A stretch of DNA of 39,673 bases from a virus, in the IMG/VR virus record IMGVR_UViG_3300045988_108579, positions 1 to 39,673 of that record; one strand, written 5' to 3'. How positions within the stretch are numbered: the first letter of the stretch is position 1; each line of letters begins with the position of its first letter. Under the pieces are notes generated by a model. That model was not told the DNA's origin. It saw only the letters and a list, made by a program, of their open reading frames with translations, and made no database searches. The translations under genes were made by a program, and so were the position numbers. Positions 1-33,800 of this stretch are shown here, in pieces.

Positions 1-119
1 GAGCAGTTGCAGCACTTCATTCATTTTCTCCTTTGCGCTGCCGGTGGCGGCGGTATACACGGATGATAACGAGGACGACCATAAGCGCGGCGATCGCAAA
101 ACAGACCATCGAGAACACC
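1..119. repeat. Terminal direct repeat, left copy. Circular-assembly overlap or a short DTR.
   Basis: Read base by base, 1..119 is identical to 39555..39673. The repeat is bounded by the window ends, so the genome unit is 39,554 bp. Confidence 0.95.
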
Positions 120-535
120 GCGAGGAAGTTCCACTCGCCGCGGAAGAAACCGATATCCGCGCACCGAAGATCCAGCGTAACACACCAGATGACAACGACA
201 AAGAAGAACACGCCGAGCATCAGAATGACGGTGCGGAGATATTCGATATCCCGGACGGCGGATTCATACCGCGACTTCCAGTGGGAGGCGTCCTGCCGGG
301 CAAGCTCCGTTTCCGCGCGGCCGCTCGGGGCGAGAATGCCGAAGGTTTCATCGAGCGAGACGTGCAGCTCCCGGGAGATGCGCACGACCGTATCAATGCT
401 GGGGTTCGTAGATTTCGGGGAAAAGGCGTACTCCACGGTGCTCGGCGACAGATCGGCGGCTTCGGCAATGTCCGGGAAGGTGCGTGTGCCCTTGGCCTCC
501 CGCCAGCGGTTTTTCAGCACGTCCATTTCGTTCAT
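17..535 (-). CDS. Membrane-anchored XRE-family HTH regulator.
   Basis: 172-aa ORF. The N-terminus has an HTH (FPDIAEAADLSPSTVEYAF...IDTVVRISRELHVSLDETF). The C-terminal half has two hydrophobic segments (ILMLGVFFFVVVIWCV; FLAVFSMVCFAIAALMVVLVII). GGAG lies 5 nt upstream of the ATG at 535. The stop TGA overlaps the integrase ATG (ATGA) across the circle junction. Confidence 0.75.
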   Translation of the reverse strand: MNEMDVLKNRWREAKGTRTFPDIAEAADLSPSTVEYAFSPKSTNPSIDTVVRISRELHVSLDETFGILAPSGRAETELARQDASHWKSRYESAVRDIEYLRTVILMLGVFFFVVVIWCVTLDLRCADIGFFRGEWNFLAVFSMVCFAIAALMVVLVIIRVYRRHRQRKGENE

Positions 536-839
536 GTTCTCCGTCCTTTCGTTATTTTCGGGGTGAACCGGGATATATTCGTGTCGAAAAAGCTGAACTC
601 CGGCTCGCCCGCAAAGCGTTCGGTTTCGGATTTTGCGCCGGTCTGTTACGATGCAGTAACAGCAGGGCGAGCGGGACGCCCTGCGGCAGACGTCCGGGGC
701 GGGTCTGTGGCACGGCTACCCCGGGCGTTTGCCTACACTATAGCACTATCCGCGGCAGAACGGCACGGAAAATATATAAATTTGTAAGAATATACAAGAG
801 AATAACCAGAAATGCAACAAAATGACAAGGGGGAAAGAA

Positions 840-938
840 ATGGAAGAGACGAAGATCGAGGAGATCGTGCGGATGCTGCGGAGGATGGACATATGGCAGC
901 TGCGGAGAGTGTACTTCTTCGTGCTGGGGATGATGTAG
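840..938 (+). CDS. Mini-protein, 32 aa. Paralog 1 of the IEEIVRML family.
   Basis: MEETKIEEIVRMLRRMDIWQLRRVYFFVLGMM. An AAGGGGGAAAG RBS-like tract lies just upstream. A 32-nt block (849..880) is identical to 16151..16182. The ORF is below the size cutoff of the ORF track. Confidence 0.55.
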   Translation: MEETKIEEIVRMLRRMDIWQLRRVYFFVLGMM

Positions 939-1038: not shown

Positions 1039-1314
1039 TCAGTCAAACAAATCGCTGTGTGTGCCGGTACGGGTGAGACAGAGCGTCAGCTCGCCATGGG
1101 ATATCTCGTAGATCAGCAGCCAGTCCGGCGTGATGTGGCACTCGCGGCAGCCGATATAGTCGCCGGAGAGCGCGTGGTCGCGGTTCTTTTCCGGGAGCGG
1201 CTTTTCCTCGGCGAGAAGCTGCACAACGTTTTCCAACAGGCGCACGTCATAGCCGCGGCGGACGATGCGCTTATAGTCCCGGCGGAAGGCTGCCTGAAAC
1301 TTAATCGTCAGCAT
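1039..1314 (-). CDS. yafQ: Type II toxin, YafQ/RelE family mRNA interferase.
   Basis: 91 aa. DHALSGDYIGCRECHITPDWLLIYEI...TRTGTHSDLFD matches the YafQ pattern DHPLxGxxxGxRxxHxxPDWxLIY...RTGTHxxLF. It overlaps the upstream antitoxin gene by 14 nt. Confidence 0.85.
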   Translation of the reverse strand: MLTIKFQAAFRRDYKRIVRRGYDVRLLENVVQLLAEEKPLPEKNRDHALSGDYIGCRECHITPDWLLIYEISHGELTLCLTRTGTHSDLFD

Positions 1315-1573
1315 TGAGCGCCTCCATCAGATCCTCGACGGAATGGAACGGGCCGCTCAAGCCGATGCCGGCCTCGGCGTCCTCGATCGCCTTTCTCGTT
1401 TCGGCGTTCGGGATCTCCGCGCCGATCTCAAAGGGGATGCGGTATTCGCGGACGGCCTTTTTCGCAAAGACGGTGACGGCGGCGGTGACGGAAAGCCCCA
1501 TATCGGCACAGAACGCCTCGAACTGCTTCTTGAGCTCGCTGTCCATACGGATATTCATGACCGTGGTTGCCAT
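1301..1573 (-). CDS. dinJ: Type II antitoxin, DinJ/RelB family (ribbon-helix-helix).
   Basis: Starts at internal ATG 1573 with GGAG 8 nt upstream. MATTVMNIRMDSELKKQFEAFCADMGLSVTAAVTVFAKKAVREYRIPFEI is DinJ-like. It lies immediately upstream of yafQ. Confidence 0.8.
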   Translation of the reverse strand: MATTVMNIRMDSELKKQFEAFCADMGLSVTAAVTVFAKKAVREYRIPFEIGAEIPNAETRKAIEDAEAGIGLSGPFHSVEDLMEALNADD

Positions 1574-1604
1574 ACTATCAGCTCCTTTCAATATTTGTAT
1601 ATAC

Positions 1605-1633
1605 ATTGTATTACATAATATACACGTTGTCAA
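1605..1633 (-). promoter_or_regulatory. Sigma-A-type promoter of dinJ-yafQ.
   Basis: On the minus strand: TTGACA (1633..1628), 17-nt spacer, TACAAT (1610..1605). The spacer and flank contain the inverted repeat GTATAT...ATATAC, a candidate autoregulatory operator. Confidence 0.7.
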
Positions 1634-1636
1634 CAT

Positions 1637-1675
1637 AAAAAAGAGAACGGAGGTCAATCTCCGTTCTCTTTTTCT
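1637..1675 (-). terminator. Rho-independent terminator after the CI-like repressor. An A-run on the other side makes it potentially bidirectional.
   Basis: 11-bp stem AGAGAACGGAG/CTCCGTTCTCT with loop GTCAAT. T-runs follow on both strands. The repressor stop codon lies in the loop. Confidence 0.75.
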
Positions 1676-2058
1676 TTTTGCAGGGCGTTGTAGGATTCGT
1701 AGACATTGCAGACGAACTCAAGCGCGGCGCGGATGGCTGGTTCGGGTGTCTTGCGCAGGGCGTCGATGAACGCGAGCACCTCGGGCGAGGCGCTCTCTTT
1801 GGACAGGCCGCCGAAGAAGCGGGCGCGATCCTCATCCTCGGTGAGCTGCTCGAGCATCTCGCCGGTGCCATCGCGGAGCCAGGCTTCCCGCACATTGAAT
1901 TCGCGGCAGATCAGCGAGATCACCGCATCGGACGGGACGTTTCGACCGGATTCATAAGTGGCTACGGTGCTCTGCTTGGTTTTGGTGCGTTCGGCGAACT
2001 TCTGCTGCGTGAGGCCGTAAAAATCACGAACCTCCTTGATGCGGCTGCCAACGGACAT
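1654..2058 (-). CDS. CI-like XRE-family HTH repressor.
   Basis: The start is taken at ATG 2058, with AAGGAGG 8 nt upstream. MSVGSRIKEVRDFYGLTQQKFAERTKTKQSTVATYESGRNVPSDAVISLICREFNV is a classic XRE HTH. It is divergent from an operator-rich region. Confidence 0.85.
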   Translation of the reverse strand: MSVGSRIKEVRDFYGLTQQKFAERTKTKQSTVATYESGRNVPSDAVISLICREFNVREAWLRDGTGEMLEQLTEDEDRARFFGGLSKESASPEVLAFIDALRKTPEPAIRAALEFVCNVYESYNALQKEKENGD

Positions 2059-2081
2059 AGGCAGCACCTCCTTTCGAGGAC

Positions 2082-2110
2082 AATATATCAGCGAAAAATG
2101 AAAAAGTCAA
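2082..2110 (-). promoter_or_regulatory. Repressor-maintenance (PRM-like) promoter.
   Basis: On the minus strand: TTGACT (2110..2105), 17 nt, TATATT (2087..2082), upstream of the repressor RBS. Confidence 0.6.
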
Positions 2111-2116
2111 TATAAA

Positions 2117-2132
2117 ATATCGCAAACCGATA
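2117..2132. promoter_or_regulatory. Operator O1.
   Basis: ATATCGCAAACCGATA is internally palindromic (TATCG-N5-CGATA). Its exact reverse complement recurs at 2150..2165. It sits just upstream of the -35 of the repressor promoter. Confidence 0.65.
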
Positions 2133-2141
2133 AAATGGGGC

Positions 2142-2170
2142 TTGACAAATATCGGTTTGCGATATATATT
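2142..2170 (+). promoter_or_regulatory. PR-like rightward promoter with operator O2 in its spacer.
   Basis: TTGACA (2142..2147), 17 nt, TATATT (2165..2170). The spacer is essentially operator O2, TATCGGTTTGCGATAT (2150..2165), the exact inverted copy of O1. Confidence 0.65.
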
Positions 2171-2192
2171 TAACGCAGACCGATAGACAGAG

Positions 2193-2213
2193 ATCGCAAA
2201 GCGATGCAATCGC
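2193..2213. promoter_or_regulatory. Two overlapping operator-like palindromes downstream of the PR-like promoter.
   Basis: ATCGC-AAA-GCGAT (2193..2205) and GCGAT-GCA-ATCGC (2201..2213) share the ATCGC/GCGAT half-site with O1 and O2. Confidence 0.4.
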
Positions 2214-3488: not shown

Positions 3489-3635
3489 ATGAGCGAGGAA
3501 ATCAAAGTGATGATCGAGGATGCCGTGCGGAAGCTGGAGACGCTGCCGCCGATGCAGCAGAGCCTGTGTGTCGGGTTCGTGCTCGGAGCGGGCGCGACCG
3601 AGAACACCAAGAAGGACGAGAAGGAGGCGGGGTAA
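3489..3635 (+). CDS. Mini-protein, 48 aa. Divergent fourth member of the IE[ED]xVRxL...FxLG family.
   Basis: AAGGAGGTGAGGAC precedes the ATG. MSEEIKVMIEDAVRKLETLPPMQQSLCVGFVLGAGATENTKKDEKEAG. The motif residues I9,E10,V13,R14,L16,F30,L32,G33 sit in the same register as in the 16133 mini-protein. 3513..3536 matches the 24-nt family core at 20/24 positions. The ORF is below the ORF-track cutoff. Confidence 0.55.
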   Translation: MSEEIKVMIEDAVRKLETLPPMQQSLCVGFVLGAGATENTKKDEKEAG

Positions 3636-3879: not shown

Positions 3880-3931
3880 GACAATCCCTCCGGCGGCGAC
3901 GCCGCCAGCTCCCTTTGCACAAGGGAGGCTT
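3880..3931 (+). repeat. Double-hairpin repeat module A1.
   Basis: GACAATCCCTCC, then hairpin 1 (GGCGGC-gac-GCCGCC), then AGCTCCCTT-TGCACA-AAGGGAGGCTT. Same architecture as 5089, 12908 and 19984. Confidence 0.85.
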
Positions 3932-3975
3932 AACCCCTCCGTCAGCTTCGCTGACACCTCCCCTGTTAGGGGAGG
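3932..3975 (+). repeat. Double-hairpin repeat module B1.
   Basis: AACCCCTCC, then hairpin 1 (GTCAGC-ttc-GCTGAC), then ACCTCCCC-TGTTA-GGGGAGG. Near-identical to 19106..19151 and related to 11988..12034. Confidence 0.85.
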
Positions 3976-6745: not shown

Positions 6746-6822
6746 AGGAGCGGGTTTTGTGGGCTTGCGGGGCGTGCGCCGCTGCGGCGGCGCTGCTCGC
6801 GGTGCTGGGGCATATCTTTTAG
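6742..6822 (+). CDS. Possible 26-aa hydrophobic micro-peptide.
   Basis: ATGA-coupled to the upstream stop. MKERVLWACGACAAAAALLAVLGHIF. The translational coupling is the only support. Confidence 0.2.
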   Translation: MKERVLWACGACAAAAALLAVLGHIF

Positions 6823-6896
6823 CCGAAACGGGCGGAAGGCCCGTCGTATGGGGATGGCCGCCCATGCCTGATGATGGCAGGCCGAAGAAAGGACGG

Positions 6897-7253
6897 ATGT
6901 GTATGTCAGCTGTGGAAAAGATCGAGCGGCAGCAGGCGAAGGAAAAGGGGCGCACCGCCGCGTGGATGGTGGGAGAGCAGCTCAAGGACATGGCCCGGCG
7001 GGAGCCGGAGAGCGCGGAGCTGCTCGACAAGGATCTTGATATCCCGGAAATGAGCATCCAGCAGGCCGAGAAGAAGATCAAGGCCTACGCGGACGCGCAC
7101 AAGACCGGGAGCTTTGCGTGTGTGACGCCGGTGGAGGCCGAGAGGATCTTGCGGGAGTTTTACGGATTGACGGCGCGGGAGGAGCAGAGCAGCGCCCCTA
7201 CGGGCGATAATGGGGGCGACGCCGGGATCATCGATCTGGGGGCGTTTTTATGA
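6897..7253 (+). CDS. PcfK-like protein (tentative).
   Basis: Start at ATG 6897 or 6903, after GAAAGGA. ...MSIQQAEKKIKAYADAHKTGSFACVTPVEAERILREFYGL resembles PcfK-like proteins. It lies directly upstream of a PcfJ-like gene, as in pCF10-type elements. The N-terminal 46 codons of the track ORF were rejected. Confidence 0.45.
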   Translation: MCMSAVEKIERQQAKEKGRTAAWMVGEQLKDMARREPESAELLDKDLDIPEMSIQQAEKKIKAYADAHKTGSFACVTPVEAERILREFYGLTAREEQSSAPTGDNGGDAGIIDLGAFL

Positions 7254-10440: not shown

Positions 10441-10938
10441 ATGGATTTCAAAAATGCACTCGAGGCAATGAAACACGGGGAGGCGGTGAAGCTGCCGTCG
10501 TGGGGCGGCTTCTGGCGATGGGATGCCGAGAAGCGGACCATCATCATGCACACCAAAGAAGGAAAGGAAATGGACATCCGCGAGACGCAGGTCGTGGAAT
10601 ACACGCTGCTGAACGTCCTGTCGGACGAGTGGGTGATTGCCGGGCTTGAAAACTGCCCGGCGCTCGGCGGCATAGCGCGCTTCTCCTTCAGCGAGGCGAT
10701 AAAGTATGTCAAACGCGGGATGAAAGTGCGCCGGGCCGGGTGGAACGGGCGAAATCAGCACATCGAATTGGCGGTAGACATCTGTTACTACAGCGCCACG
10801 GACGCGCAGCCGCGCAATGCGTACCATGAGGACATAGGCAGCAAGGCCATCGTGTTCTGCGGGACGCGGGGAGAGCAGATCGGCTGGCTGGCGAGTCAGG
10901 CGGACATGCTGGCGGAAGACTGGATGTTCTGCGAATGA
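10441..10938 (+). CDS. Tandem DUF2829-domain protein (Tad2-like anti-Thoeris sponge family).
   Basis: Strong RBS AAGGAGG. The C-terminal half FSEAIKYVKRGMKVRRAGWNGRNQHIEL...IGWLASQADMLAEDWMF closely matches the DUF2829 consensus (F.eAl..lk.GkkV.R.gWng...i.l ... W.asq.DlLAeDW). The N-terminal half MDFKNALEAMKHGEAVKLPSWGGFW...LLNVLSDEWVI is a second, more divergent copy. Confidence 0.75.
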   Translation: MDFKNALEAMKHGEAVKLPSWGGFWRWDAEKRTIIMHTKEGKEMDIRETQVVEYTLLNVLSDEWVIAGLENCPALGGIARFSFSEAIKYVKRGMKVRRAGWNGRNQHIELAVDICYYSATDAQPRNAYHEDIGSKAIVFCGTRGEQIGWLASQADMLAEDWMFCE

Positions 10939-12086: not shown

Positions 12087-12145
12087 TTTGCGGACCTGTT
12101 AAAAGGCTATCTTTAGGACGGAGGATAAAAGGAGTGACGGCTTAC

Positions 12146-12979
12146 ATGGAGTACAAGATCATTTCGGGACCGGTGACGGAGATCCGCCGCGGCTGGATGC
12201 CGACAAAGAGAGGCGGCCAGCGCGTTCGGCGGGGAACAAAGGCGAAAAAGTCGAGTATTGAAAAAATCAAACGCAACGAGACGGACGCCATAAAGAAACT
12301 CACCCGAGTGCTCAACTGCAATTTCCGGATGGGGGATCTGTGGCTCACCCTTACTTTTCCGGGGAAGGAAGAAATAAACTGGGAGACCGCTCAAACGGCG
12401 TTCGACCGGTTCCTCCGAAAGCTCCGCGAGTCGTATCGGAAGGAACAAAGGGCGAACATCAAGTTCGTTTACTCCCAAGGCCGGAAAGATGAGGACGGAA
12501 ACGATGCCCGGCCACATTTTCATCTCGTCATGCCGGCGGCGGACTATGAGCTCGTCTGCGCTCTCTGGCCACAGGAGGCGGTGACGTACCGCCGTCTTGA
12601 CGGACGGAAGGATCATGTCAAGATTGCAGAGTATATGATACGAAACGCCAAGGGCGTACCGGGGAAAAAGAAATACCACACGAGCCGCGGGTTAGAAAAG
12701 CCTGTCTATACGGAACCGGTGCCAGTGTACATCAACAGCAAGATCGAACTCCCGAAAGACGCGATCATCTGTGAGCAGCATAAAACACGGGATTACGAAA
12801 GCGGGTTTACCTCGGAGTATGTCCGCTATATTCGACCGGAGAAGGAAAGAAAAGGCAACGGCGCGCGCGTCTCTGCGCGTTCTGTTAAAACAAATGTCAA
12901 CCGGGGCGACAATCCCTCCGGCGGCGATGCCGCCACCTCCCTTTGCACAAGGGAGGCTAAAAAGGAGGCGGGGAATTGA
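12146..12979 (+). CDS. HUH-superfamily rolling-circle Rep-like endonuclease.
   Basis: Motif I DLWLTLTF. Motif II (HUH) RPHFHLVM, with HFH at 12515..12523. Motif III Tyr region IAEYMIRNAKG. The start is ATG 12146, or GTG 12134. The last roughly 20 codons are encoded by repeat module A4. Confidence 0.65.
   Translation: MEYKIISGPVTEIRRGWMPTKRGGQRVRRGTKAKKSSIEKIKRNETDAIKKLTRVLNCNFRMGDLWLTLTFPGKEEINWETAQTAFDRFLRKLRESYRKEQRANIKFVYSQGRKDEDGNDARPHFHLVMPAADYELVCALWPQEAVTYRRLDGRKDHVKIAEYMIRNAKGVPGKKKYHTSRGLEKPVYTEPVPVYINSKIELPKDAIICEQHKTRDYESGFTSEYVRYIRPEKERKGNGARVSARSVKTNVNRGDNPSGGDAATSLCTREAKKEAGN
12908..12958 (+). repeat. Double-hairpin repeat module A4, inside the 3' end of the HUH gene.
   Basis: GACAATCCCTCC, then GGCGGC-gat-GCCGCC, then ACCTCCCTT-TGCACA-AAGGGAGGCT. 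Nearly identical to A1. Confidence 0.85.
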
Positions 12980-13251
12980 AGTTCCGGCCGATGAAGGGCT
13001 GCGGGGCGGTCTGGCAGCAGCGAATTGTTCACGCCTTTTTGGAGGCGTACCGGAATCTGCCGCCGCCGGCGCAGGACGAGATCCGGAAAACGATAGAGAG
13101 TACAGCGACAGGGCAGGCCGAGGGGCGTGCCCTCATCGCCGTGCTGTTGAAAAACAAATCGCCGGAGACGGCGAGCCGCGAGACGAGCGTGCCGGTGGGC
13201 CGAATCTACGAATTGAGACGGAATTTCTACGCGGCGTACTGGCCGATGTGA
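12976..13251 (+). CDS. Small HTH protein upstream of terS. Candidate late or packaging regulator.
   Basis: TTG start 7 nt after AGGAGG (TTGA overlap). ATG 12991 is an alternative. The C-terminus ETASRETSVPVGRIYELRRNFY looks like a sigma region-4-type HTH. Confidence 0.35.
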   Translation: MKFRPMKGCGAVWQQRIVHAFLEAYRNLPPPAQDEIRKTIESTATGQAEGRALIAVLLKNKSPETASRETSVPVGRIYELRRNFYAAYWPM

Positions 13252-13263
13252 GGAGGGAGAAGC

Positions 13264-13707
13264 ATGGCAAGAGACATCACACCGCGGCAGAAGAAGTTCG
13301 TGCAGGAGTATTTGCGCTCCGGCGACGCCACGGACGCCGCCATCGCCGCGGGGTACAGCGCGAAGAGCGCGGCCTCGACGGCCTCGAAGACGCTCAAAAT
13401 GCCGGGCGTCATTGAATACCGGCGGGAGCTGGAGAAGAAGCTCTTTGACGAGATGGGCATATCGAAGGCGTGGATCGGGCGGCGGCTGGTGGAGATCGTG
13501 GAGCGGTGCACACAGAAGACGCCGGTGCTGGAGTGGAACCCGGAGACGCGGCAGAAGGAGCCGAACGGATTCTGGGAATTTGACGCGAACGGCGCGATCC
13601 GCGCGCTGCATGAACTTGCCGAGCACATGGACTTTGCCGAGGGTGAGCAGAGCGCCGCCGAGAGCATTGAGGACTGGCTCGCAAGGCAGGAGGGATCGAA
13701 GTTGTGA
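13264..13707 (+). CDS. terS: Terminase small subunit.
   Basis: MARDITPRQKKFVQEYLRSGDATDAAIAAGYSAKSAASTASKTLKMPGVIEYRRE is the classic Terminase_2-type N-terminal HTH. It lies directly upstream of terL. Confidence 0.85.
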   Translation: MARDITPRQKKFVQEYLRSGDATDAAIAAGYSAKSAASTASKTLKMPGVIEYRRELEKKLFDEMGISKAWIGRRLVEIVERCTQKTPVLEWNPETRQKEPNGFWEFDANGAIRALHELAEHMDFAEGEQSAAESIEDWLARQEGSKL

Positions 13708-15332
13708 ATCCGTGCGTAGCAATGGACTACATCGAGAGCTGCCTCAAGATCAAGACGAAGAGCGGGACGGTCGTGCCGTTCCGGATGAACGACGCGCAGC
13801 GAAAGCTCTACGCCGTGGCGAAGCGGCAGCAGGACGACGGAAAGCCCGTCCGGCTCATCATTCTCAAGGCCCGGCAGCTCGGCTTTTCCACGCTGACGGA
13901 GGGCCTTATCTTCCACGCCTGCGCGACGCGACGGAACACGAACGCCCTCATTGTTGCGCACCGCGAGGACGCGACGGCAAACCTTTTCCGGATGAGCAAG
14001 CTGTTCTATGACGAGCTGCCAGCGCCGGTGAAGCCGATGCTGCGCGCCTCGAACGCGCAGGAGCTGGTATTCGAGAACCCGTCCAAGCTCCGCAGCGAGC
14101 GGGAGGCAAGGCCGGGGCTGCGCTCGCGGATCCGCTGCGCCACGGCGGGAGGGCGCGGCATCGGACGAAGCGACACGCTGCAATGCGTGCATCTCTCGGA
14201 GTACGCCTTCTGGCCGGACGGCGCGGACGGGAAAGCCTCCACGCTCGCCGGTATCTTACAGGCCGTGCCGAGTCTGCCGGGGACGATGGTCGTCATCGAG
14301 AGCACGGCGAACGGCTTTGAGGACTTCAAGGAGCGCTGGGACGCCGCCGTTGCCGGGGAGAACGACTTTGAGCCGGTGTTCTTCGCGTGGTTTGAAAATC
14401 CGGACTACTCGATGCCGGTCGTGCCCGGAACGGAATGGACGCCGGAGGAGCGGGATCTCAAGGCAGCGTATCAGCTGACGGACGGGCAGCTCCAATGGCG
14501 GCGCTGGTGCATTGCGAACAACTGCGGCGGGAGCCTGGACATGTTCCGGCAGGAGTATCCCGCCTCTCCCGGCGAGGCGTTTCTCCACAGCGGCACGGGC
14601 GTATTCGACAACGAGCAGATCGTGCTCCGGCTGGAGCGGCTGCCCGGACCCGCCGGGCGCGGGGAGTTTACAAACGGCGAGTGGACGGAGAGCGAGACCG
14701 GCGCGATCACGCTCTACGAGCTGCCGGAGGAGGGCGTTCCGTATGTGCTCGGCGGCGACACGGCGGGCGAGGGCTCGGACTACTTCACGGCCATCGTCAT
14801 CGACAACGTGACGGGGAGGATCGCTGCCAAGCTCCGGCAGAAATACAGCGAGCCGGAATACGTCCGGCAGATCTATGCACTCGGGAGGTTCTACAACGAT
14901 GCGCTTGTCGCCATAGAGACGAACTTCTCCACCTACCCGGTGATGAAGCTGCAGGAGATGGAGTATCCGAATCAGTACAGCCGCGAGCGGGAGGACACCT
15001 ACACGCGGCAGATGAGGAAGAGCTACGGCTTCCGCACCGACCGGCAGAGCCGCCCGCGGGCCATTGCGAATCTGGTGGAGGTGTTCTCCTCGCATCCGGA
15101 GTGGTTCACCGACCGGGAGCTGCTCGAAGAAATGCTGACGTTCTGCTACAACGAGGATCACCGGCCGGAGGCGCTCGCCGGGAAGCACGACGACCTTGTG
15201 ATGGGCGCGGCGATTACCTACGCGGTGCGGCATCAGCAGCGGATGACGGTGCTCACGGAGCCGGAAAAGCCGCGGGAGAAGCTCATCGACCAGATGAAGC
15301 GGCAGAAGAGAACCAGGAGAGTATGGGGATAA
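13704..15332 (+). CDS. terL: Terminase large subunit.
   Basis: 542 aa. It has an ATPase-like segment (RLIILKARQLGFSTL), DE-type motifs and a C-terminal nuclease-like part (HDDLVMGAAITY). GTGA overlap with terS. ATG 13722 is an alternative start. Confidence 0.85.
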   Translation: MNPCVAMDYIESCLKIKTKSGTVVPFRMNDAQRKLYAVAKRQQDDGKPVRLIILKARQLGFSTLTEGLIFHACATRRNTNALIVAHREDATANLFRMSKLFYDELPAPVKPMLRASNAQELVFENPSKLRSEREARPGLRSRIRCATAGGRGIGRSDTLQCVHLSEYAFWPDGADGKASTLAGILQAVPSLPGTMVVIESTANGFEDFKERWDAAVAGENDFEPVFFAWFENPDYSMPVVPGTEWTPEERDLKAAYQLTDGQLQWRRWCIANNCGGSLDMFRQEYPASPGEAFLHSGTGVFDNEQIVLRLERLPGPAGRGEFTNGEWTESETGAITLYELPEEGVPYVLGGDTAGEGSDYFTAIVIDNVTGRIAAKLRQKYSEPEYVRQIYALGRFYNDALVAIETNFSTYPVMKLQEMEYPNQYSREREDTYTRQMRKSYGFRTDRQSRPRAIANLVEVFSSHPEWFTDRELLEEMLTFCYNEDHRPEALAGKHDDLVMGAAITYAVRHQQRMTVLTEPEKPREKLIDQMKRQKRTRRVWG

Positions 15333-15380: not shown

Positions 15381-15424
15381 TTGACAATGTACCCCACATT
15401 TGATATATTAAACGTGGGGTACAT
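15381..15424 (+). promoter_or_regulatory. Consensus promoter embraced by an 11-bp perfect inverted repeat.
   Basis: TTGACA (15381..15386), 17 nt, TATATT (15404..15409). The inverted repeat is ATGTACCCCAC (15387..15397) and GTGGGGTACAT (15414..15424). Confidence 0.7.
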
Positions 15425-15440: not shown

Positions 15441-15629
15441 ATGGGAAACCCTAACGCGAAAGGCCGCCCGACCCCTCTGAATCCGAAAGATAAGTTCTTC
15501 AAAATGCGTACCGACGAGAAAATGCTTTTGCTTTTGGAGGAAAATAGCCGCATGACCGGCAACACAAAAGCCGACGAGGTGCGAATCGCTATTGAAGAGC
15601 GGAACAAGCGGCTGAAAGAAGCAAAATAA
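15441..15629 (+). CDS. Small ribbon-helix-helix-like (CopG/MobC-type) protein.
   Basis: RBS GGAGGTG. KGRPTPLNPKDKFFKMRTDEKMLLLLEENSRMTGNTKADEVRIAIEE follows the beta-strand then two-helix RHH pattern. The region is lower in GC. Confidence 0.5.
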   Translation: MGNPNAKGRPTPLNPKDKFFKMRTDEKMLLLLEENSRMTGNTKADEVRIAIEERNKRLKEAK

Positions 15630-15760
15630 AAATTCCCTGCGCTGCTCAGTTTGGCGACAGACAGCACAGGGAACCCGTTACCGACCTTTTGCAAGGAGGG
15701 TGTAAATATATTACTATGCCCTCTTTCAAAGGTCAAGGACAATTTGAAGGAGGTTTTTCT

Positions 15761-16015
15761 ATGCCCAAAAGCACAAACCCGGTAAAAGTCATCCGCGAGA
15801 AATGCCTTGACTGCTGCTGCGGCAGCACGAAGCAGGTTGAGCTTTGCCCCTGCGAGAGCAACTGCCCGCTGTGGCCGTTCCGTTTCGGGAAGAATCCCTT
15901 TAGGAAAAAGCCCAAACGGACGGAAGAGCAGATGGCGCGGCTCACGGCTGCAACAAGAAAGAAACGCGGCGCTATAAACGAGACGGAGACGAACGAAACG
16001 GACGGGGTAAGGTAA
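15761..16015 (+). CDS. Cys-rich small protein (zinc-binding?).
   Basis: ATG 15761 follows GAAGGAGG. MPKSTNPVKVIREKCLDCCCGSTKQVELCPCESNCPLWPFRFGKNPF, then a basic tail. Confidence 0.55.
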   Translation: MPKSTNPVKVIREKCLDCCCGSTKQVELCPCESNCPLWPFRFGKNPFRKKPKRTEEQMARLTAATRKKRGAINETETNETDGVR

Positions 16016-16132: not shown

Positions 16133-16240
16133 ATGAATAACGATAGAGAAACGAAGATCGAGGAGATCGTGCGGATGCTGCGAAACATGGATATACGGGC
16201 GCTGCGGCGGGGGTATTTCTTCCTGCTGGGGGTGATCTGA
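16133..16240 (+). CDS. Mini-protein, 35 aa. Paralog 2 of the IEEIVRML family.
   Basis: MNNDRETKIEEIVRMLRNMDIRALRRGYFFLLGVI. AAAGGAA RBS. It shares a 32-nt identical block with paralog 1. Confidence 0.55.
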   Translation: MNNDRETKIEEIVRMLRNMDIRALRRGYFFLLGVI

Positions 16241-16258
16241 CGGAAAGGAGACAGGGAC

Positions 16259-16411
16259 ATGAAAAGCAATACGGCAAACGCCGAGCGGGAAAAGACCATC
16301 GAGGAGATCGTGCGGATGCTGGCCAACACGGACGAGGAGGCTCTGCGGTTTATCCGGAGCTTTCTGCGGGCAGCACGGGAGCAGCACAAACGTGATAATA
16401 AATGCGGGTAA
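16259..16411 (+). CDS. Mini-protein, 50 aa. Paralog 3 of the IEEIVRML family.
   Basis: AAAGGAG RBS. MKSNTANAEREKTIEEIVRMLANTDEEALRFIRSFLRAAREQHKRDNKCG. The 24-nt core 16298..16321 is identical to 855..878 and 16157..16180. Confidence 0.55.
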   Translation: MKSNTANAEREKTIEEIVRMLANTDEEALRFIRSFLRAAREQHKRDNKCG

Positions 16412-16431
16412 TATTTCACAGAAATTTTTTG

Positions 16432-16466
16432 ACCGGAGCGGGAAACCGCTCCGGTTTTGCTTTTTT
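16432..16466 (+). terminator. Rho-independent terminator closing the moron unit.
   Basis: 10-bp stem ACCGGAGCGG-gaaa-CCGCTCCGGT, followed by TTTGCTTTTTT. Confidence 0.8.
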
Positions 16467-19970: not shown

Positions 19971-19983
19971 CGGTAAAAAAAAC

Positions 19984-20038
19984 GACAATCCCTCAGTCAG
20001 CCTTGCGGCTGACAGCTCCCTTTGCACAAGGGAGCCTT
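19984..20038 (+). repeat. Double-hairpin repeat module A6.
   Basis: GACAATCCCTCA, then GTCAGCC-ttgc-GGCTGAC, then AGCTCCCTT-TGCACA-AAGGGAGCCTT. Confidence 0.85.
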
Positions 20039-20060
20039 TGAGCGGAAAGGAGGAAACGAT

Positions 20061-22482: not shown

Positions 22483-23262
22483 ATGAGCATACAGGAACAG
22501 AAGATCACGGACGCCGCCATCGCCGCGAACGGCGTGCAGAGCCGGCCCGACAAGCTGACCGGCACGGCGGCGCAGAACAAGAAGGTATTCGACGCGCTCG
22601 TGACGGCGGTGGTGAAAGAGCGCTTCAACGCCCTGCTCGACGAGCTGACCGGAACGACTGCCGCGGCGCAGCTCGGCATCACGACGATCCCCGGTTTTTC
22701 GGCGGGGAACGTACAGACGGCGCTTGAGCAGATCGTACAGGCGATGCAGGACGTGACGCAGGGCAGCGTTGCGGACGGGAGCATCACACTATTAAAGCTC
22801 GCCGCGGAGGTGACGGCCGTCGCTCTCGGCGGCGCGGCGGCGAGCCATACGCACGGCGCGGAAGATATAAATTCCGGCGTTCTGGACGCGGCGAGGATAC
22901 CGGTGCTGGACGGCACGAAGCTCGGCGCGGGGAGCGTCGGCACGGCGCAGCTCGGCGCGGCGGCGGTGACGACGGAGAAGCTCGCGGCGCTCTCGGTGCT
23001 CGCAACGCACATCGCGCAGGGCGCGGTCACGGCGCAGAAGATCGCGCCGGGCGCGGTCACGGCGGAGAAGATCGCCGCGGGTGCTATCATCACGGCGCTG
23101 CTCGCGCCGAACGCCGTGACCGCCGAGAAGCTCGCGAACGACATTCCGTATACGAAGTTCGGGCTTGTAGCCGATCAGGTGCGGCACGTTTACGCCGGAA
23201 CGACGGAGCCGGACGCCGGTCTCGGCAGCGACGGGGATATCTATCTCAAGTATGCAGAGTGA
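22483..23262 (+). CDS. Tail fibre protein with decapeptide repeats.
   Basis: Repeats of G(A/S)V(T/G)T(A/E)(K/Q)(L/I)A, for example GAVTAQKIAPGAVTAEKIAAGAIITALLAPNAVTAEKLA, are typical of phage fibre proteins. Confidence 0.6.
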   Translation: MSIQEQKITDAAIAANGVQSRPDKLTGTAAQNKKVFDALVTAVVKERFNALLDELTGTTAAAQLGITTIPGFSAGNVQTALEQIVQAMQDVTQGSVADGSITLLKLAAEVTAVALGGAAASHTHGAEDINSGVLDAARIPVLDGTKLGAGSVGTAQLGAAAVTTEKLAALSVLATHIAQGAVTAQKIAPGAVTAEKIAAGAIITALLAPNAVTAEKLANDIPYTKFGLVADQVRHVYAGTTEPDAGLGSDGDIYLKYAE

Positions 23263-26481: not shown

Positions 26482-27877
26482 CTTTTGGGATTGGGTGAAC
26501 AAGCAGGCCAACAAGCAGGCCGCGACCGGGGACGAGCTGCTGTACGCCGATGCGCTGAAAAACCAGGAGGCGAGAAACGCTGCGAATAACCAGTACGCCG
26601 CGGCAGCCGCGGCGGCGAAAAGTGGGAGCGCGAACAGCTCGTCTCTGCAGGGGACCATCGATCCCGACCGGACGGGCGCGGCGGCGCCGCCGCGAAAAGG
26701 GCTCTATGACCAGACGGGCATGAACGCGACGGCGGCGAACGCGGCAAGCGGAGCGATGACCGGCGCTCTGGCCGGAGCGGGCGTACTGCCGAACCAGAAC
26801 GGAGCGCAGCAGCCGACCACGACACCGACGCAGCCGGGCACGTCCGGCGGCGGCAAGGTGACGTACATCGACCCCAACGGCGACGCGCAGAAGGGCACGA
26901 CGGAAGGAACGGCGGAGGAAACGCCGGGCGAGCCGCAGCGGACGTATCTGGACGAGCTGCGTGACCAGTACCAGAAGATGTACGACGATGCGGTGAAGGC
27001 CAACAACGACGCGGCAAAGGCCGCCGCCGAGCGGGCGATCGCGCAGGCGGAGAAGGGCGTCGGCGAGCTCGGAGACCAGTACGGAAGTCTCAACAAGCAG
27101 CTCTACCGCGACTACATGGAATCCCTGCGCGTGCTGCCGCAGGAGATGGCCGCGAGAGGCTACAGCGGCGGCATGAGCGAATCGGCCCGGCTGGGGCTGG
27201 ATACGGCCTACGGCGAGCGGCTGAACGAGAACGAGGCCGCGCGCATTGCCGCCATCATGCAGCTGCGGCAGCAGGGCGCGGACGCCGAGTATCAGGCGAA
27301 CGCCGCGCGGGATCAGGCAAACGCGCAGGCGCAGCAGAATCTCTACGCGAACATGATGAATCTCATTCTTCAGCAGCAGCAGGACGCCGCGACGAAGGCG
27401 CAGAACATGGCGCAGTACGGCGATTTCTCCGGCTATCTCGGGCTCGGCTACACGCGCAGCGAGATCGACCAGATGCAGAAGGCGTGGATCGCGGCGAATC
27501 CGGAGCTTGCGAAGGCGCTGGGGTATGTCAAGACGCCGGAGCCTGTGTACAGCTCTTACAGCGGCGGAGGCGGGAAAAACAACACGCCGAGCGCTGAGCA
27601 GCAGGCGAACGGAAGAGATCTTCTGAGCGAAGCGATACAGCTGAAAAACGGCGGGACACCGTACAGCCAGATCGCCAAGGCACTCGACGAGGAAGCTGCC
27701 GCGGGAACGATCACGACGGCACAGGCGGAGGCGGCAAAGCGAGCGGCAATAAGCAGCGGGCTGGATAACGCCTATGCGTCGATGAAGAAAAACACAACGC
27801 AAAAAGGCCCCGTCTCCGGAGGGAGACTGATCACTGAGGGCGACTTTTACAGCCAAATTCTCGGAGGTAGAAAATGA
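26474..27877 (+). CDS. Putative internal virion or ejection protein.
   Basis: 467 aa. Low-complexity Ala/Gln/Gly-rich sequence with coiled-coil stretches. It lies between the portal and the giant protein and is translationally coupled on both sides. Confidence 0.45.
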   Translation: MANFWDWVNKQANKQAATGDELLYADALKNQEARNAANNQYAAAAAAAKSGSANSSSLQGTIDPDRTGAAAPPRKGLYDQTGMNATAANAASGAMTGALAGAGVLPNQNGAQQPTTTPTQPGTSGGGKVTYIDPNGDAQKGTTEGTAEETPGEPQRTYLDELRDQYQKMYDDAVKANNDAAKAAAERAIAQAEKGVGELGDQYGSLNKQLYRDYMESLRVLPQEMAARGYSGGMSESARLGLDTAYGERLNENEAARIAAIMQLRQQGADAEYQANAARDQANAQAQQNLYANMMNLILQQQQDAATKAQNMAQYGDFSGYLGLGYTRSEIDQMQKAWIAANPELAKALGYVKTPEPVYSSYSGGGGKNNTPSAEQQANGRDLLSEAIQLKNGGTPYSQIAKALDEEAAAGTITTAQAEAAKRAAISSGLDNAYASMKKNTTQKGPVSGGRLITEGDFYSQILGGRK

Positions 27878-30800
27878 GCCTTACGGAAAGAATCTACGGA
27901 AAAGAGACAGCCGGAAAACCGGCTGTCTCTTCGGACACTCAGAAGAACCTGTATACTATGGCGGCGAACAAAAAGCCGTCGCTCGCAAACCGCATTGCGC
28001 AGAACGGCGGGCAGCCGACGCTCTACGCTGACGCCGCAGCAAAGCAGAAGCCGTCGCTTGCAAGCCGCATTGAGGCCAACGGCGGGACGCCATACGCCGA
28101 CGCGGCGGCGCAGATGAAGAGCGGGAATGCGGCGAAGGGCACGAGCGTCGTTTTCAACAGCGTGTACGGCAAGGCGGACGACCGGGCGAGCTCGGCCGGA
28201 TCCGGAAAGTATGCCGATATTCTCAAAGCGAGCGACTATACCGAGCTTTCCAAAAGCGGCGAGAGCAAGAGAAAGCTCTTCGGCGACGCCCGGTATGATT
28301 ACATCAACAACATCGGGAACTTCCGTGCGCAGTCCGACGTGCAGCAGGCGCAGGGGCGCGGGCAGGACTACGGGAAATACGCCTTCATGACCGATGATGA
28401 GATCGGCGTATACAACTACCTCTACGCCAAGCAGGGCAAGAAGGCGGCGAACGCCTATCTGAGCGATCTTGAGCCGGAGCTGGACAAGCAGTGGTACACC
28501 GGAACGAACCGGGCAACGACGGAGGCGCTCGGAAAGAACGCGGCGACGCGGACGCTGGCAAGCGCCATGACCGTTGCGGCGCAGCCTACCCGGACGATCA
28601 CGAGCATGATCGCCATGGCGGACGATGCGGTGCGCACGGCGAAGGGGCAGGAGATCAACCCCTATTCCAAGTGGCGGCAGGCGAGCAACATCACGCAGGA
28701 TCTCCGTGCCGACACCTCGCAGCACATCGAGGAAACGAATCCGGGGATGGGCGGCAAGGTCGGGAGCTTCGTATACAACACCGCGATGAGCGCCGCGGAC
28801 AGCGCGATGAACGCGCTTGTCGCCAAGGGCATCGGCGAGGCGGTGGGGCTTACCGGCGACACGCTGATGAAGGCGACGAACATTCTCGGCTCGGCGCTGA
28901 TGAGCTCGGAGGTGGCTTCTCTGTCCATCGCCGAGAGCAAGGAAAAGGGATACTCCAACGCCGGAGCGCTGGTGCTCGGTCTGACGCGCGGCGCGATCGA
29001 GTACGCTTCGGAGGCGGTCGGCGGCGAATGGGTCATCCGAAAGATCAAGGCAAACCCGCTGAGCTTCGTGAAGAGCATGGCGCTCACGATGATCCCCGAG
29101 GGCATGGAGGAGGTCATGTCGGACGCGGCGAACGGCGTGGTAAACCTTGCGATCGACGCGGCGTTCGGCACGGAAGAGAGCGGGATCCCGAAGATGCTCG
29201 AATACTACCGGACCAGCGGCACGGATTGGCAGAAGAAGCACGCGGAGCTTGCGACCGTGCTTGCCGTTCTCGGACAAGAGGGGCTTTCGTTCCTTGGCGG
29301 CGCGCTGGCAACACTGGGGTCGAGCAGCGTGCAGTACAGCACGAACCGCGCGAACATCAACCAGACAGCCGAGCGGCTGGACACTACACCGAAGAACGTT
29401 GTGCAGATGATGCAGGACGCGCAGACGGAAAACCCCGGCGTTATATACGCGCTGGCCGAGCTGACCGACGCGGAGAACGCCGACGATCTCCGGCAGAAGA
29501 TCGGCACGAAGGAAGATATGAAGCGCGCGGCGGAGTATCTGACGCAGCAGATGGGGGCAGGCGGACGCTCCGGCGCGCAGGAAGGTAATTATACTTCCGG
29601 GGCGCAAAACGCGCCTGTGAGTGCGCAGAGGGCGCAGAACGAAGGAATCAGCACGACGCCTACAGCGGCGATCAACATTCAGGAGGGAATGAACAATGGA
29701 CAGAGTACTTATCAGGGACGAGAAAACGGGTCTTATGATCTCCGTGCCGGCGGACAAGCTGCCGCAGAAGGAGGAGCGCAAGCTCTCGCCGGAGGCCGAG
29801 CGGAAATTCCGGGAGGCGTGGGAGCGGACGCGCAGGCGGATCTACGGAAAGTAACTCCGGCGCAGCTCGGCATCCGAAACGGCGGCACGGAGGCCGTGAC
29901 CGTAGTGGACGCGCGGAAGATCGGCGGGGACGCGGCGAGAGCGTATAATCTTCTCGCGGCGAACAATATAGAGCCGGTCGCGGTGCGCGGAGCCATTCAG
30001 GTGAACAACGGCTACGCGAACGCCTATACCGAGAGCGGGAGGGTGTTCTTCCGCGTGGACGCCGTGGACAGCCGCGGCAACGCCATCAGCCCGGAGGCGC
30101 TGGTGCGGCACGAGCTGTTCCACAACTACATCTCCGAGGAGGTTTTGCAGGCGTCGGACGAGGTGATCCGCGAGAGCATGACCGCCGAGGAATACGACGC
30201 GATGTATGAGAGCTACCGCGACGCCTACGCGAGCATCTACGATTTTGACAACATGAGCGTGGACGAGATCGAGCGGCTGGTCACCGAGGAGATCGCGGCG
30301 GACGCTTACGCGGGGCTGAACTGGTTCTCCGGCGACGCGCCGGTGCAGGAGGCCGTGCGCGCCGAGACAGAAAGAAACGCCCCGGCCCGGAGGGAAGAGG
30401 CGCAGCAGGAGACGACGGGACCGCCGGAAGGACAGGGCGCTGTATACATTGAAAAGTCAAAGTCGGCGTTGGAATCAAATCCAAACAGCAACGCCTATGT
30501 TCTGGCGAGCAGCATACCGCTTCTGCAAAATTCGGAAGTCGTAAAGCACCTTACGGGGGAAGAATTGAATGATGCGTCGAAACCGTTGGATCAACAGATT
30601 TCTGATTTGTTCGCGTCTGTGGGGAACGTCGCGCACCGCGAAGGATTCGGCAAAGTGGAGCTGAACCGCTACGGAGTTGACGGAATTATAAACCACAAAC
30701 CGAACCGGTCAAAGGTGCTGGGCGTTGCAGCGATAAAGGAAGTAATCGAAAAAGGCTACATCATCAAGACGAATCTGAATTGGAAAGGACGAGGGTACGA

Positions 30801-33800
30801 CAGCTACATGATTGCTGCTCCGGTAGGATTGGGAGACGCAACCGTTTATGTAGCCGCTGTAGTAAACCGAGATCAGGGAACAAACAAGTTCTATCTGGAC
30901 GAAGTTGTTGATCAGGACGGAAACTACATAAACATAAAGAACGAAGCCCCCGGCAACACAAAAACTGGGGTTACCGTTCAAGACGGGGTCACCAGAGGGC
31001 CGAAGGCTTCGTCTGATGCTATTGTACACTCTGATACCGGGAATAGTCAAGAAAAATCTTCCGGCAAAGCGAGTGTAGAGGTATCCGGGATCAACAACCG
31101 CACAGCCGCGGAGCTCCGGCGCGAGTATGAGCGACGGATGCAAGAGTACCAGAAGGCGACGCAGCGGGACGACCCGAACTTCCCGTATATCGACGAGATG
31201 AAGTGGATGCAGGCGGCGGAGAGACGGCTCGCGGAGCTGGGCGACGGGAAGCACAGGCGCAGGACGGTAGGAAGCACGAAGCGCGACATTATGCAGCTGT
31301 TCAGCACGGACCGGGCGAACCGCACGGACGTGGAGCGGGTACTCAACCGGAACATCGGAGAGATGATGGCGCAGGGCGAGATCCGAGGCGACGCGCTGGA
31401 CACGCTTGTAAACGAGCTGCTGCAGGCCGGAAGTGTTGTGTCCTCCTCGAAAAACAGCCCGTGGATCGATGAGACCTACGAGAGCATCCGGAGCGATCTG
31501 AAGGGCGGCAAGCTCTATGTATCGAAGGATATGTGGCGCGATTTCAGCAAAGACGAGGCGCGGGAGCTGCGAGAGCGGGCAAGGGCGGCAGGGATCACGC
31601 TTTCCGATAACCGGAGATACACGCCGCCGGATGTGCGGAATATAGAGCTTGCCGAGAAATACGGCGAGGCGCTTTTCCCGACGGATATTTCCGCGCCGGA
31701 TATGCTGCGAAATATCATCTACTGCGCCGAGCAGGGAGCGAACGAGAAGCAGACGCTCGCGGATCGGCTGTGGGACGAGGCGCAGCAGGAGGGGCTCGGC
31801 GAGGCAAGAGAACACGCCTACGAGAGAATGGTGAACGATCTGCGGGATAAAACGGAGGTCATACTGCGCGAATTTGCCGAGGACAATCATCTGAAGCTGA
31901 AGGAGCAGACAAAGACCGAAGCAAAGCCTGTATCCTACTTCGACCTGAAGAAAGCGCCGGCCAAGGAGTTTGACCGCAAAAAAGGCGACTACAACATCAT
32001 CGGCGAGATCGGCTCCTACACAAAGGAGATCGCGGAGCTGGAAAACGCGCTCGAAACGGAAAACCGGTATGTGATCTCCGAAGGCGAGGCGAGATATGAG
32101 GCACGCATCGAAGAGAAAAACGGCGTGCTGTATGCCTCTGTCTGGAAGAACGGCGAGCGCCTCGCCGGCGCGTCAAGCCGGAAGCGGAAAAACCTCCCGA
32201 ACTGGGCGGCGATGGAGATCCGAAAGGACGTAGGCGCACGGATCATGTTCCATCCGGGCCTTGAAAACCGGGGCGAGAGCTACAACGCCGATCTCAAGGC
32301 CGCCGAGGAAGCCGGGTATCCGGTGTTCGAGAAGAAGAACGGCGAGAAGGTCCAGACCGTGCCGTTCTGGACGTGGCTGAAAAGCAAGGAGTATGGAAAC
32401 TACGGACTGGTCATCGACAAGACCAATGCGCAGGACGCGGACGGGAATCCCATTGTATTCGCGTACTACTTCAACAAGAAAAAAGGCACCGGAAAGGTCG
32501 TGATGGAGAGCAGGGAAACGGCTTACGTCGTGGACGGCAAATATTCAGACCCGGATGCTGCGGAAAAAAGAGCCGCCCGGATGAAGGACGAAGAGTCTGA
32601 GGCGATGCGCGCCGAGGAGCGCGAGGCGCTGTGGAGAGAGACGCAGAAGGGCTCGCCGTTTGAAGCGCAGCCGAACGCCACGACGGACACCAGAGAGCGG
32701 GTCACGAAAGCGACGTCGGCGGGCGTGCAGCGGCTCTTCCAGCAACTCATCTCCAAGGGAAAAACCGAGGTATCCACACAGGGAGAGAGCGGGATCCGGA
32801 CGTACACCGCGAAGATGAACACGAACGGCGTGGAGTACTGGGTCGATATCTCCGACGGCCGGCAGGACGTGCAGCGGTTCCGGGAATTTGAAAAGGAAAA
32901 GGCCGCGCAGCTCGCCGCGGAGTGGATGGACAAGGAGGCCAACCGCGCGTACACCGCCGCGAACGAGAAGCGAGCCGAGGCGAGACGGGCGGAGCTGAGC
33001 GCGGAGGAGAACGCGAAGATCGCCGAGTTGTTCGGAAATACCGAAGAACTCAAGACGGCGGAAACGCCGGAGGACGCGCCGAGCCCCGGCGAAACGGCGG
33101 AGAGCCGCGTCACGGACGAGATCGTAAAGGCGGAAAAGGGCTTCCGCGAAAGTCTTGCAGACGTCACGCACGGAGCTATGCGTATGTTTGTAAACGCTGG
33201 GGAGACGGTGCGCCGGATCTCCAAGCAGACGAAGAACAAGAGCCTGGAGGGGTACTACTTCAACGCCGGGGCGTACTCCCAGCGGGCGGGAAACTGGATC
33301 GCCAAGGGCGGCGCGCGCACCGACATCAGCGGGCACAAGACCGGCGAAAGCCTTATGGACATTCTCGGGGATATCATGAAAACCCCGGAAAAGTACAAGG
33401 ACTTTCAGCTGATGCTCCTGCACCGGAACAACGTGGACCGCATGCGGTACGACAGCACGGAAGAGGTCCAGAATCTCACGAAGTGCGTGACGACGATCGA
33501 AGATCTCTACCCGAAGCTGCGCGGGCTGGACAACGACTATCTCTACCAAACCGCCGTTCCGGGAGACAAGCGGGATATGCTTTCGAGAGAATGGAAAGAG
33601 ACGGTGCTCGATGAGCTTCTCAACGGCGAGATGCCGGAGATCGCGGATATATCCGAGGCGGCGCAGATGCTCATCTTCACGCGGCAGAAAATCAGCGAGG
33701 CGAAAAAGAACGGGCTGAAACCGGTGTTCGGATACGAGGTCACGGCCTACGATAGCCAGCTGGAGGCCGAACGGCTGCTGAAAGCCAACCCGGAGTTTGA

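Follow-up and report, generated by a model that had tools for sequence, protein, structure and literature searches.

The closest characterised analogue of the proteins considered here is AimX, a helical anti-repressor of 29-80 aa found in the extended arbitrium phages of Bacillus (Kabel et al., bioRxiv 10.1101/2025.11.23.689978). Its gene converges on or overlaps aimC, which encodes a helix-turn-helix (HTH) repressor of 80-140 aa without a cleavage domain, and lies 3' of a LexA site in some phages, many members having no such site (bioRxiv 10.1101/2025.11.23.689978). AimX binds the C-terminal oligomerisation domain of AimC and co-evolves with AimC (bioRxiv 10.1101/2025.11.23.689978). In this work, we describe four mini-genes, labelled A, B, C and D, carried by the virus genome IMGVR_UViG_3300045988_108579 of IMG/VR, which was analysed as a whole (39,673 nt; from this point on, the window, or W in pairwise comparisons). 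Their products belong to an unannotated family of two-helix proteins and, judging from sequence comparison, are probably small non-proteolytic anti-repressors of the CI-like repressor of the phage, acting through its C-terminal domain (CTD). By analogy, the logic would be that of AimX/AimC, but in a form that is multi-copy, multi-specificity and, in the group to which the window belongs, free of SOS boxes.

Other small anti-repressors also provide points of comparison. The TF-smORF modules of plasmid-like phages of Vibrio and Aeromonas pair a transcription factor (TF) with a small open reading frame (smORF) whose product inactivates cI non-proteolytically (Silpe et al. 2023, PMC10432266). These modules are sometimes placed away from the immunity region, for instance by late genes, show strict repressor specificity, and have a role in inter-prophage competition (PMC10432266). 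GfoA and GfhA of the Gifsy phages are LexA-controlled anti-repressors that also work in trans, on prophages other than their own (Lemire et al. 2011, PMC3121763), and Sar of SPbeta/phi3T is a DNA mimic that binds an integrase-fold repressor (bioRxiv 10.1101/2025.11.27.690993).

The four mini-genes and the nucleotide core that first drew attention to them are as follows, with E-values from a six-frame hidden Markov model (HMM) scan and with the ratio of non-synonymous to synonymous variation among orthologs (pN/pS).

840..938, plus strand: copy A, 32 aa, the copy of the lysogeny module; E=1.5e-21; pN/pS 0.12
16133..16240, plus strand: copy B, 35 aa, MNNDRETKIEEIVRMLRNMDIRALRRGYFFLLGVI; E=2e-19; eight ortholog alleles, pN/pS 0.20
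16259..16411, plus strand: copy C, 50 aa; E=2e-13 with an HMM made without C- or D-type sequences; pN/pS 0.44
3489..3635, plus strand: copy D, 48 aa, in the early operon; pN/pS 0.11
855-878, 16157-16180 and 16298-16321, plus strand: 24-nt core ATCGAGGAGATCGTGCGGATGCTG, exact at all three sites, encoding IEEIVRML of helix 1

An earlier, sequence-only reading of this DNA had reported four such mini-ORFs with three exact 24-mers on the plus strand and a match at 20 of 24 positions in D; coordinates, translations and core matches all agree with ours, and the core of D is in frame. The chance expectation for the 24-mer is nil (0 in 100 shuffles). The repeat surrounding it reaches 67-90 nt, with A and B 84% identical across 90 nt. 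The scan finds exactly four copies and no larger window protein with the domain. Copy B resembles A in both helices. Copy C starts 18 nt past the stop codon of B, in a frame common to both, and its helix 2, DEEALRFIRSFL, is of the type seen at the A position of the siblings L059-L064 (L- and P-numbered loci, such as L007 or P0107, are the sibling phages or metagenomic relatives compared). Copy D belongs to a distant subfamily with an LPPxxQ...GFVLG motif. It is missed (E~2) by the HMM made without C- or D-type sequences, the same model that finds C, whereas a profile-profile comparison (hhalign) joins the D subfamily in register (90.5%, E=1.3e-6). Since D is tied to the others by this alignment and by the 20/24 nucleotide match only, the proposed four-member family stands for A, B and C and has to be relaxed for D, which is a distant relative.

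Scans of the peptides against Pfam, PHROGs and NCBIfam returned nothing at the curated cut-off, and a blastn search with the B/C region found no match among deposited phages. Profile searches, which had been suggested on the basis of the sequence, were more productive and recovered about 100 relatives from metagenomes, all unnamed or labelled 'hypothetical protein'. An exhaustive profile search gave 43 cluster representatives, nearly all of 31-60 aa, following the pattern hI.EIVR.L...D...LR.hY.FhLG with 35-50% identity among distant members. Matches of a back-translated degenerate pattern in genome contigs, 17 in number, were all attributed to chance by the family HMM. As modelled by AlphaFold2 (AF2) with the family alignment, copy A is a helical hairpin (helices 2-14 and 18-31, pLDDT 93); a Foldseek search of this model against PDB gave nothing significant, as expected for 32 aa. 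The mini-genes are real, and their products belong to a family of two-helix proteins, 31-50 residues long, that has so far escaped annotation; in size and predicted helical build they are like AimX. The smORF products of the TF-smORF modules are of ~50-60 aa and unrelated in sequence. A tblastn search with A and P0097 against 50,697 deposited phage genomes gave no match or E=0.4, with the caveat that AimX proteins are themselves highly divergent, and no AimR-like gene, and hence neither aimR nor aimP, appears in any context table of the sampled loci. The hosts also differ, being gut Clostridia (Oscillibacter and others) rather than Bacillus. The peptides are highly charged and have no signal sequence, hydrophobic export segment or membrane-spanning segment; with no linked receptor gene either, the suggestion that they might be peptide signals is disfavoured. 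Fusions occur naturally in two metagenomic relatives: in P0107, B reads through into C, the two being in the same frame, and in P0076 the N-terminus of Rha is joined to a C-type tail.

Strong conservation at the nucleotide level also raises the alternative of a nucleic-acid element, whether operator, recombination site or RNA motif, that would consist of the 24-mer or its surrounding repeat and leave the ORFs incidental. Codon bias alone, for the same peptide, would give two identical cores with P~0.005 and three with P~1e-4, so the identity of the three 24-mers does exceed that expectation, and homology between W and sibling L062 ends right after the core, at ~885, where the core may serve in passing as a patch of recombination homology. 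Nevertheless, such a site is highly improbable. The C orthologs differ from the 24-mer at three or more core positions, some of them amino-acid-changing: sibling C cores read ATCAAGGAGATCGTTGGGATGCTG (IKEIVGML) or ATCGAGGAGATCATCGGACTGTTG (IEEIIGLL), and further alleles mix E/K, V/I and G/R at core positions. Distant members keep the peptide motif while the core DNA drifts to just 15-21 of 24 nt, with third positions matching at 2-7 of 8. The 24-mer lacks palindromic character, it stands constantly in the same codon register of an ORF bearing a ribosome-binding site (RBS), and an Rfam search of the four copies is without a match.

The coding features of the mini-ORFs are those of genes. The G+C content at the three codon positions (GC1/GC2/GC3) follows in all four the pattern of the long genes of the window (GC3 0.71-0.88, GC2 0.28-0.39), and direct reading of the sequence reveals a purine-rich RBS 6-9 nt 5' of each. 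Orthologs specific to each paralog exist in sibling phages, and in these the frames stay open, with neither the frameshifts nor the stops that would have spoken against a peptide. The comparison of synonymous with non-synonymous change proposed in the sequence-only reading points to constraint at the peptide level, all four pN/pS values being below 0.5, and variation among orthologs of B and D is concentrated at third codon positions. By these measures, the mini-ORFs are peptide genes and the 24-mer is not a DNA or RNA site. Its exact identity reflects paralogy, peptide constraint and gene conversion. Because the cores of sibling C genes and alleles differ, the perfect core of C in the window is a derived state, for which short-patch gene conversion from B, 141 nt away in the same frame, is the simplest explanation. 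The stretch coding for helix 1 may double as a recombination junction, given that the W/L062 homology ends immediately past it; this would be a by-product and is no evidence for a binding site.

The genomic contexts of distant members were compared across 11 lineages. In eight of these (P0096, P0097, P0101, P0102, P0106/P0115, L065, L066/L068 and the window group), the mini-gene is on the plus strand between integrase-side genes and an XRE repressor, both on the minus strand, and converges on the 3' end of the repressor gene with a stop-to-stop gap of 15-70 nt. The partner repressors align end to end and constitute one family of 123-141 aa, with an HTH, the motif ICREF.V.E.WLR.G.GEM and a helical CTD; no S24 peptidase domain is present in any of them. 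Convergence on a short, non-cleavable, cI/cro-style HTH repressor is thus a feature common to this family and to AimX/AimC, whereas in the TF-smORF modules the repressors are cI proteins capable of autoproteolysis and responsive to SOS as well. The window has the same gene order, with a toxin-antitoxin (TA) cargo inserted.

38456..39574, minus strand: integrase
1039..1657, minus strand: YafQ/RelB TA cargo, between copy A and the repressor gene
1654..2067, minus strand: CI-like repressor of 137 aa, with an XRE HTH, the motif ICREFNVREAWLRDGTGEM and a helical CTD of 'A type'; no S24 peptidase domain

We predict that A, and probably B too, targets the 137-aa repressor. Copy A occupies the equivalent of the commonest, repressor-convergent location of the family: it directly abuts the terminator of the repressor gene in L007, and in the window the TA cargo (0.7 kb) and a hairpin terminator come between the two. 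The cargo is swappable, being absent from L007 and replaced in L059-L061 by an Abi_2 abortive-infection gene. In L065, L066 and L068, which possess independent A-like mini-proteins together with A-type CTDs, a D gene joins the pair of mini-gene and repressor.

This arrangement invites two further explanations. One is that the convergent transcript alone matters, through antisense action or transcriptional interference with the repressor gene, and that the peptide is irrelevant. The proximity of the 3' ends in most lineages fits such a model, which was once proposed for aimX. It was experimentally excluded there, and here the peptide is under purifying selection, the insert and hairpin terminator separate A from the repressor in the window, and B, C and D are without an antisense partner, which leaves it with hardly any likelihood. 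The other is an excisionase or recombination directionality factor, as in most lineages the mini-gene is a neighbour of the integrase or recombinase gene and runs in the opposite direction; in staphylococcal phages, xis likewise lies next to int in the opposite orientation. This too is very unlikely. Tyrosine integrases and serine recombinases are both found among these lineages, the mini-protein type follows the repressor CTD and not the integrase (see below), the modelled two-helix hairpin of 31-35 aa has no winged-helix or HTH DNA-binding fold, and paralogs occur in the early operon and in a late-region cassette.

The promoters of the mini-genes carry a LexA box in six of the 11 lineages (binomial P~2e-5, allowing up to one mismatch). 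For instance, three lineages have an exact GAAC-N4-GTTC, the Firmicute LexA box, in the spacer between -35 and -10, abutting the -10 (binomial ~2e-6), as in TTGACT-atatcGAACagttGTTC-TATATT. No exact box other than these three occurs in 64 kb of sequence from the loci concerned. Another three lineages have one-mismatch boxes, AAAC-N4-GTTC or GAAC-N4-GTTT, located within the spacer or past the -10, ahead of the RBS. Two other candidates were discarded: a LexA-like match at 595-606 of the window is not conserved in L007, and an exact box in a spacer of L062-L064 precedes no ORF and is within chance expectation. Control of this kind recalls Tum of coliphage 186, GfoA/GfhA, AntC of N15 and Sar, all of them phage proteins that are expressed from LexA-repressed promoters and inactivate a repressor that cannot be cleaved; those proteins have other sizes and folds (Tum is ~146 aa), and the window copies differ in having no LexA box.

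Damage-inducible expression would also suit an effector aimed at the host, such as an inhibitor of cell division or replication or a toxin-like protein, sited at a moron hot-spot between integrase and repressor; SidA, YneA, Kil, TisB and DinQ are the analogues. The very small size of the proteins, their independent transcription units and the extra copies in a moron-like cassette can be read in the same way as the LexA boxes. Such an effector is nonetheless improbable, as the peptides are highly charged with no membrane-spanning segment, and as it leaves unexplained both the restriction to one repressor family and the tight co-variation with the CTD of the repressor, which persists across a conserved insert.

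In a Mantel comparison of 11 pairs, distances among mini-proteins correlate with those among CTDs at r=0.91 (p=5e-5; partial r=0.91), a value inflated by physical linkage in that the mini-gene adjoins the CTD-coding end, as against r=0.21 for the N-terminal domain (NTD). AimX and AimC, again, behave alike in this respect. W and L007, both with an A-type peptide, have NTDs that are 68% and CTDs that are 88% identical, whereas L060 and L007, with C- and A-type peptides respectively, reach 91% in the NTD and just 38% in the CTD. All of L059-L064 have a C-type peptide at the A position and a CTD 34-38% identical to that of the window, the HTH half being 63-91% identical. Between W and L062, identity amounts to 79-81% in the outer flanks and to 92-93% in the TA cargo between both genes, but falls to 42% in the loop and helix 2 of the mini-protein and to 49% in the repressor CTD. 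L029 and L030 represent a natural domain swap, in which the mini-protein is identical and the CTD near-identical (87%) while the HTH halves share 40%. As far as these sequences go, it is with the repressor CTD, and not with the HTH, that the type of mini-protein changes, even across a 92-93% identical TA insert.

The synteny, the LexA boxes and the CTD co-variation favour, among the functions that had been suggested at the outset, a small regulator of the anti-repressor kind that partners an HTH protein. From these results, together with the coding status and the fold, we infer physical binding, the sign of its effect and the roles of B, C and D. The mini-protein would bind the helical CTD of a short XRE repressor without an autocleavage domain, helix 1 (IEEIVRML) being constant and helix 2 setting the specificity. 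Binding would disable repression, most plausibly by blocking oligomerisation, so that lytic growth is triggered or locked in. In many lineages, host LexA would keep the mini-gene silent until DNA damage. Copy A would be the cognate copy of the lysogeny module, possibly controlled by a divergent, membrane-anchored protein, orf172; B and C would make up an autonomous cassette, equipped with a promoter, operator and terminator of its own; and D, the early-operon relative and a conserved early gene, may provide feed-forward commitment, the weakest of these assignments. A comparable mechanism operates in SinI/SinR of Bacillus subtilis, where a small helical protein blocks the oligomerisation of an XRE-type repressor by way of a C-terminal helical domain. 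That system is chromosomal and not SOS-controlled, and SinI is homologous to the CTD of SinR, whereas the mini-proteins are not detectably similar to the repressors.

Several observations weigh against an anti-repressor function. The comparison of the mini-protein family with the repressor family by hhalign gives a probability of 0.2%, so that a homologous decoy in the style of SinI is not supported. Pure linkage as the cause of the co-variation is countered only by the W/L062 mosaic and the cargo swaps; linkage alone is insufficient in view of the high identity of the W/L062 cargo next to the low identity of helix 2 and the CTD. No LexA box was found at the four copies of the window or their closest relatives, and the window as a whole has 14 matches with up to one mismatch where 15.5 are expected, which is no enrichment. 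Three lineages have the mini-gene elsewhere, namely at the edge of an element by the terminase (P0100), in an early operon (P0125) and, on a truncated contig, adjoining a serine recombinase (P0093). The weak membership of D in the family belongs here as well. Finally, the direction of the effect is taken from the logic of the SOS promoters and the AimX analogy only, and the same co-variation and synteny would apply to a repressor-binding co-repressor, stabiliser or specificity modulator, like MOR of TP901-1 or gp7 of GIL01. The window copy A, having no LexA box, could then be expressed in the lysogen. We regard this as unlikely, because LexA-repressed promoters elsewhere in the family imply expression exactly at induction and because AimX is itself an anti-repressor; an anti-repressor thus remains the probable function.

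The setting of copy A suggests how it might be controlled without LexA. The window is a complete temperate phage-like genome of ~39.55 kb; an exact 119-nt terminal duplication (1-119 and 39555-39673) implies that it is circularly closed or terminally redundant, and near-identical contigs of 39.4-39.8 kb occur in Oscillibacter metagenome-assembled genomes and in IMG/VR. Besides the genes listed above, its organisation includes the following.

17..535, minus strand: orf172, an XRE-type HTH protein with two predicted transmembrane (TM) helices, neighbour of the integrase gene and divergent from copy A
536..839, intergenic: control region of copy A, with AATATACAA-like direct repeats at 771-779 and 789-797; no LexA box
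2068..2203: switch region with a 16-nt inverted repeat
3489..3635 (copy D), plus strand: early operon, which includes copy D
12134..15332, plus strand: replication initiator, TerS and TerL
from 16621: structural genes

The membrane-anchored orf172 is a candidate regulator of A. The sequence-only reading had listed this protein among HTH and sigma-like candidates; it is not a sigma factor, and none was identified, so a sigma-partner role for the mini-proteins has no support. A similar design is present in the unrelated lineage of L066, where a TM-anchored XRE-type HTH protein (341..913, minus strand) lies by the integrase, divergent from the mini-gene. The AATATACAA-like repeat occurs in three copies in L007; its proposal as an operator common to A and the switch was rejected, the switch having the different 16-nt inverted repeat. 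In layout only, the orf172/A pair is like a TF-smORF module, in which the TF is usually divergent, and so is the cassette of small regulator, B and C with its palindromic operator. The regulators of the TF-smORF modules have been shown by experiment to be activators, while the links between regulator and target proposed here are positional.

Copies B and C are the distal genes of a cassette ordered as promoter, 62-aa small regulator, Cys-rich ORF, B, C and terminator.

15381-15409, plus strand: cassette promoter, TTGACA-17-TATATT
15387-15397 (ATGTACCCCAC) and 15414-15424 (GTGGGGTACAT): 11-nt inverted repeat flanking the cassette promoter
15441..16015, plus strand: first two cassette genes, a 62-aa DNA-binding protein (15441..15629) and a Cys-rich ORF (15689..16015)
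16431-16456, plus strand: strong intrinsic terminator closing the cassette, an 11-bp stem with 8 GC pairs followed by a T-run

The 62-aa protein is repressor-like by phrog_876, has a weak match to PSK_trans_fac, and looks like a small ribbon-helix-helix repressor; the 11-nt inverted repeat is the likely operator of the cassette. The Cys-rich ORF (CLDCCCGS...CPCESNC) has no family match. In siblings, Rha and RepB_reg are found in place of the first two genes. B and C occur together in 15 of 15 sibling loci, whatever the cargo upstream. A multi-copy complement of this sort, of four paralogs that include a late-region cassette with two specificities, distinguishes the window from AimX/AimC, as does the fact that function here is predicted from sequence. 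By type, B would have the specificity of the phage itself and C that used by sibling phages. No window protein has a C-type CTD, and since C matches the repressor type of the siblings, it probably acts in trans on other prophages.

We tentatively extend this to the proposition, which we hold to be less likely than not, that B and C together make up a portable two-specificity anti-repressor weapon against own and sibling CTD types, and that A is under membrane-anchored orf172 rather than SOS control. If so, expression of B and C from one promoter could override heteroimmune relatives or co-induce resident sibling prophages of Oscillibacter. Control of A by orf172 would likewise constitute a DNA-damage-independent induction input, linked to the cell envelope or the environment, in prophages of gut Clostridia. 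With many such prophages, standard inducers give poor or unpredictable results, and the switches between lysis and lysogeny have for the most part not been characterised. The components of one such switch are now testable: a mini-protein family, its likely repressor target, a likely specificity determinant in helix 2 and the CTD, and two alternative control schemes, by LexA box or by dedicated regulator. The paradigm of the tiny anti-repressor, as in AimX and the TF-smORF modules, would be carried from Bacillus and Vibrio to phages of the human-gut Oscillospiraceae/Lachnospiraceae type, and the presence of several anti-repressor specificities per phage, which the window would suggest, bears on prophage competition and on the engineering of inducible gut phages. 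The mini-genes also remind us that annotation systematically overlooks ORFs of fewer than 50 aa in immunity regions.

Several features of the window outside these loci also merit description. A type II hammerhead ribozyme (RF02276), full-length with an Rfam score of 50.1 bits (gathering 37) and E=1.6e-7, lies at 6821..6886 on the plus strand, within or at the start of the early-region ORF 6759..7253. A double-hairpin repeat of ~59 nt (GACAATCCCTCCGGCGGCGAYGCCGCC.. CTCCCTTTGCACAAGGGAG) occurs four times (3875-3933, 5088-5146, 12903-12961 and 19983-20050), apparently in intergenic positions just 5' of plus-strand genes and with no Rfam match; it could be a terminator, an anti-terminator or a processing element. 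Sibling L062 has a 400-nt spacer full of similar CCACCTCCCTC/GAGGGAGG hairpins. Among the larger ORFs, all on the plus strand, 10441..10938 encodes a 165-aa protein with a Tad2-like (Thoeris anti-defence 2) domain (PF11195, E=8e-23), and 27874..36564 is a single ORF of 2896 aa whose L062 homologue has LPD23/LPD38 'large polyvalent protein' domains. Six tandem 30-nt (10-aa) repeats occupy 22917..23136 inside ORF 22483..23262, which has no Pfam match.

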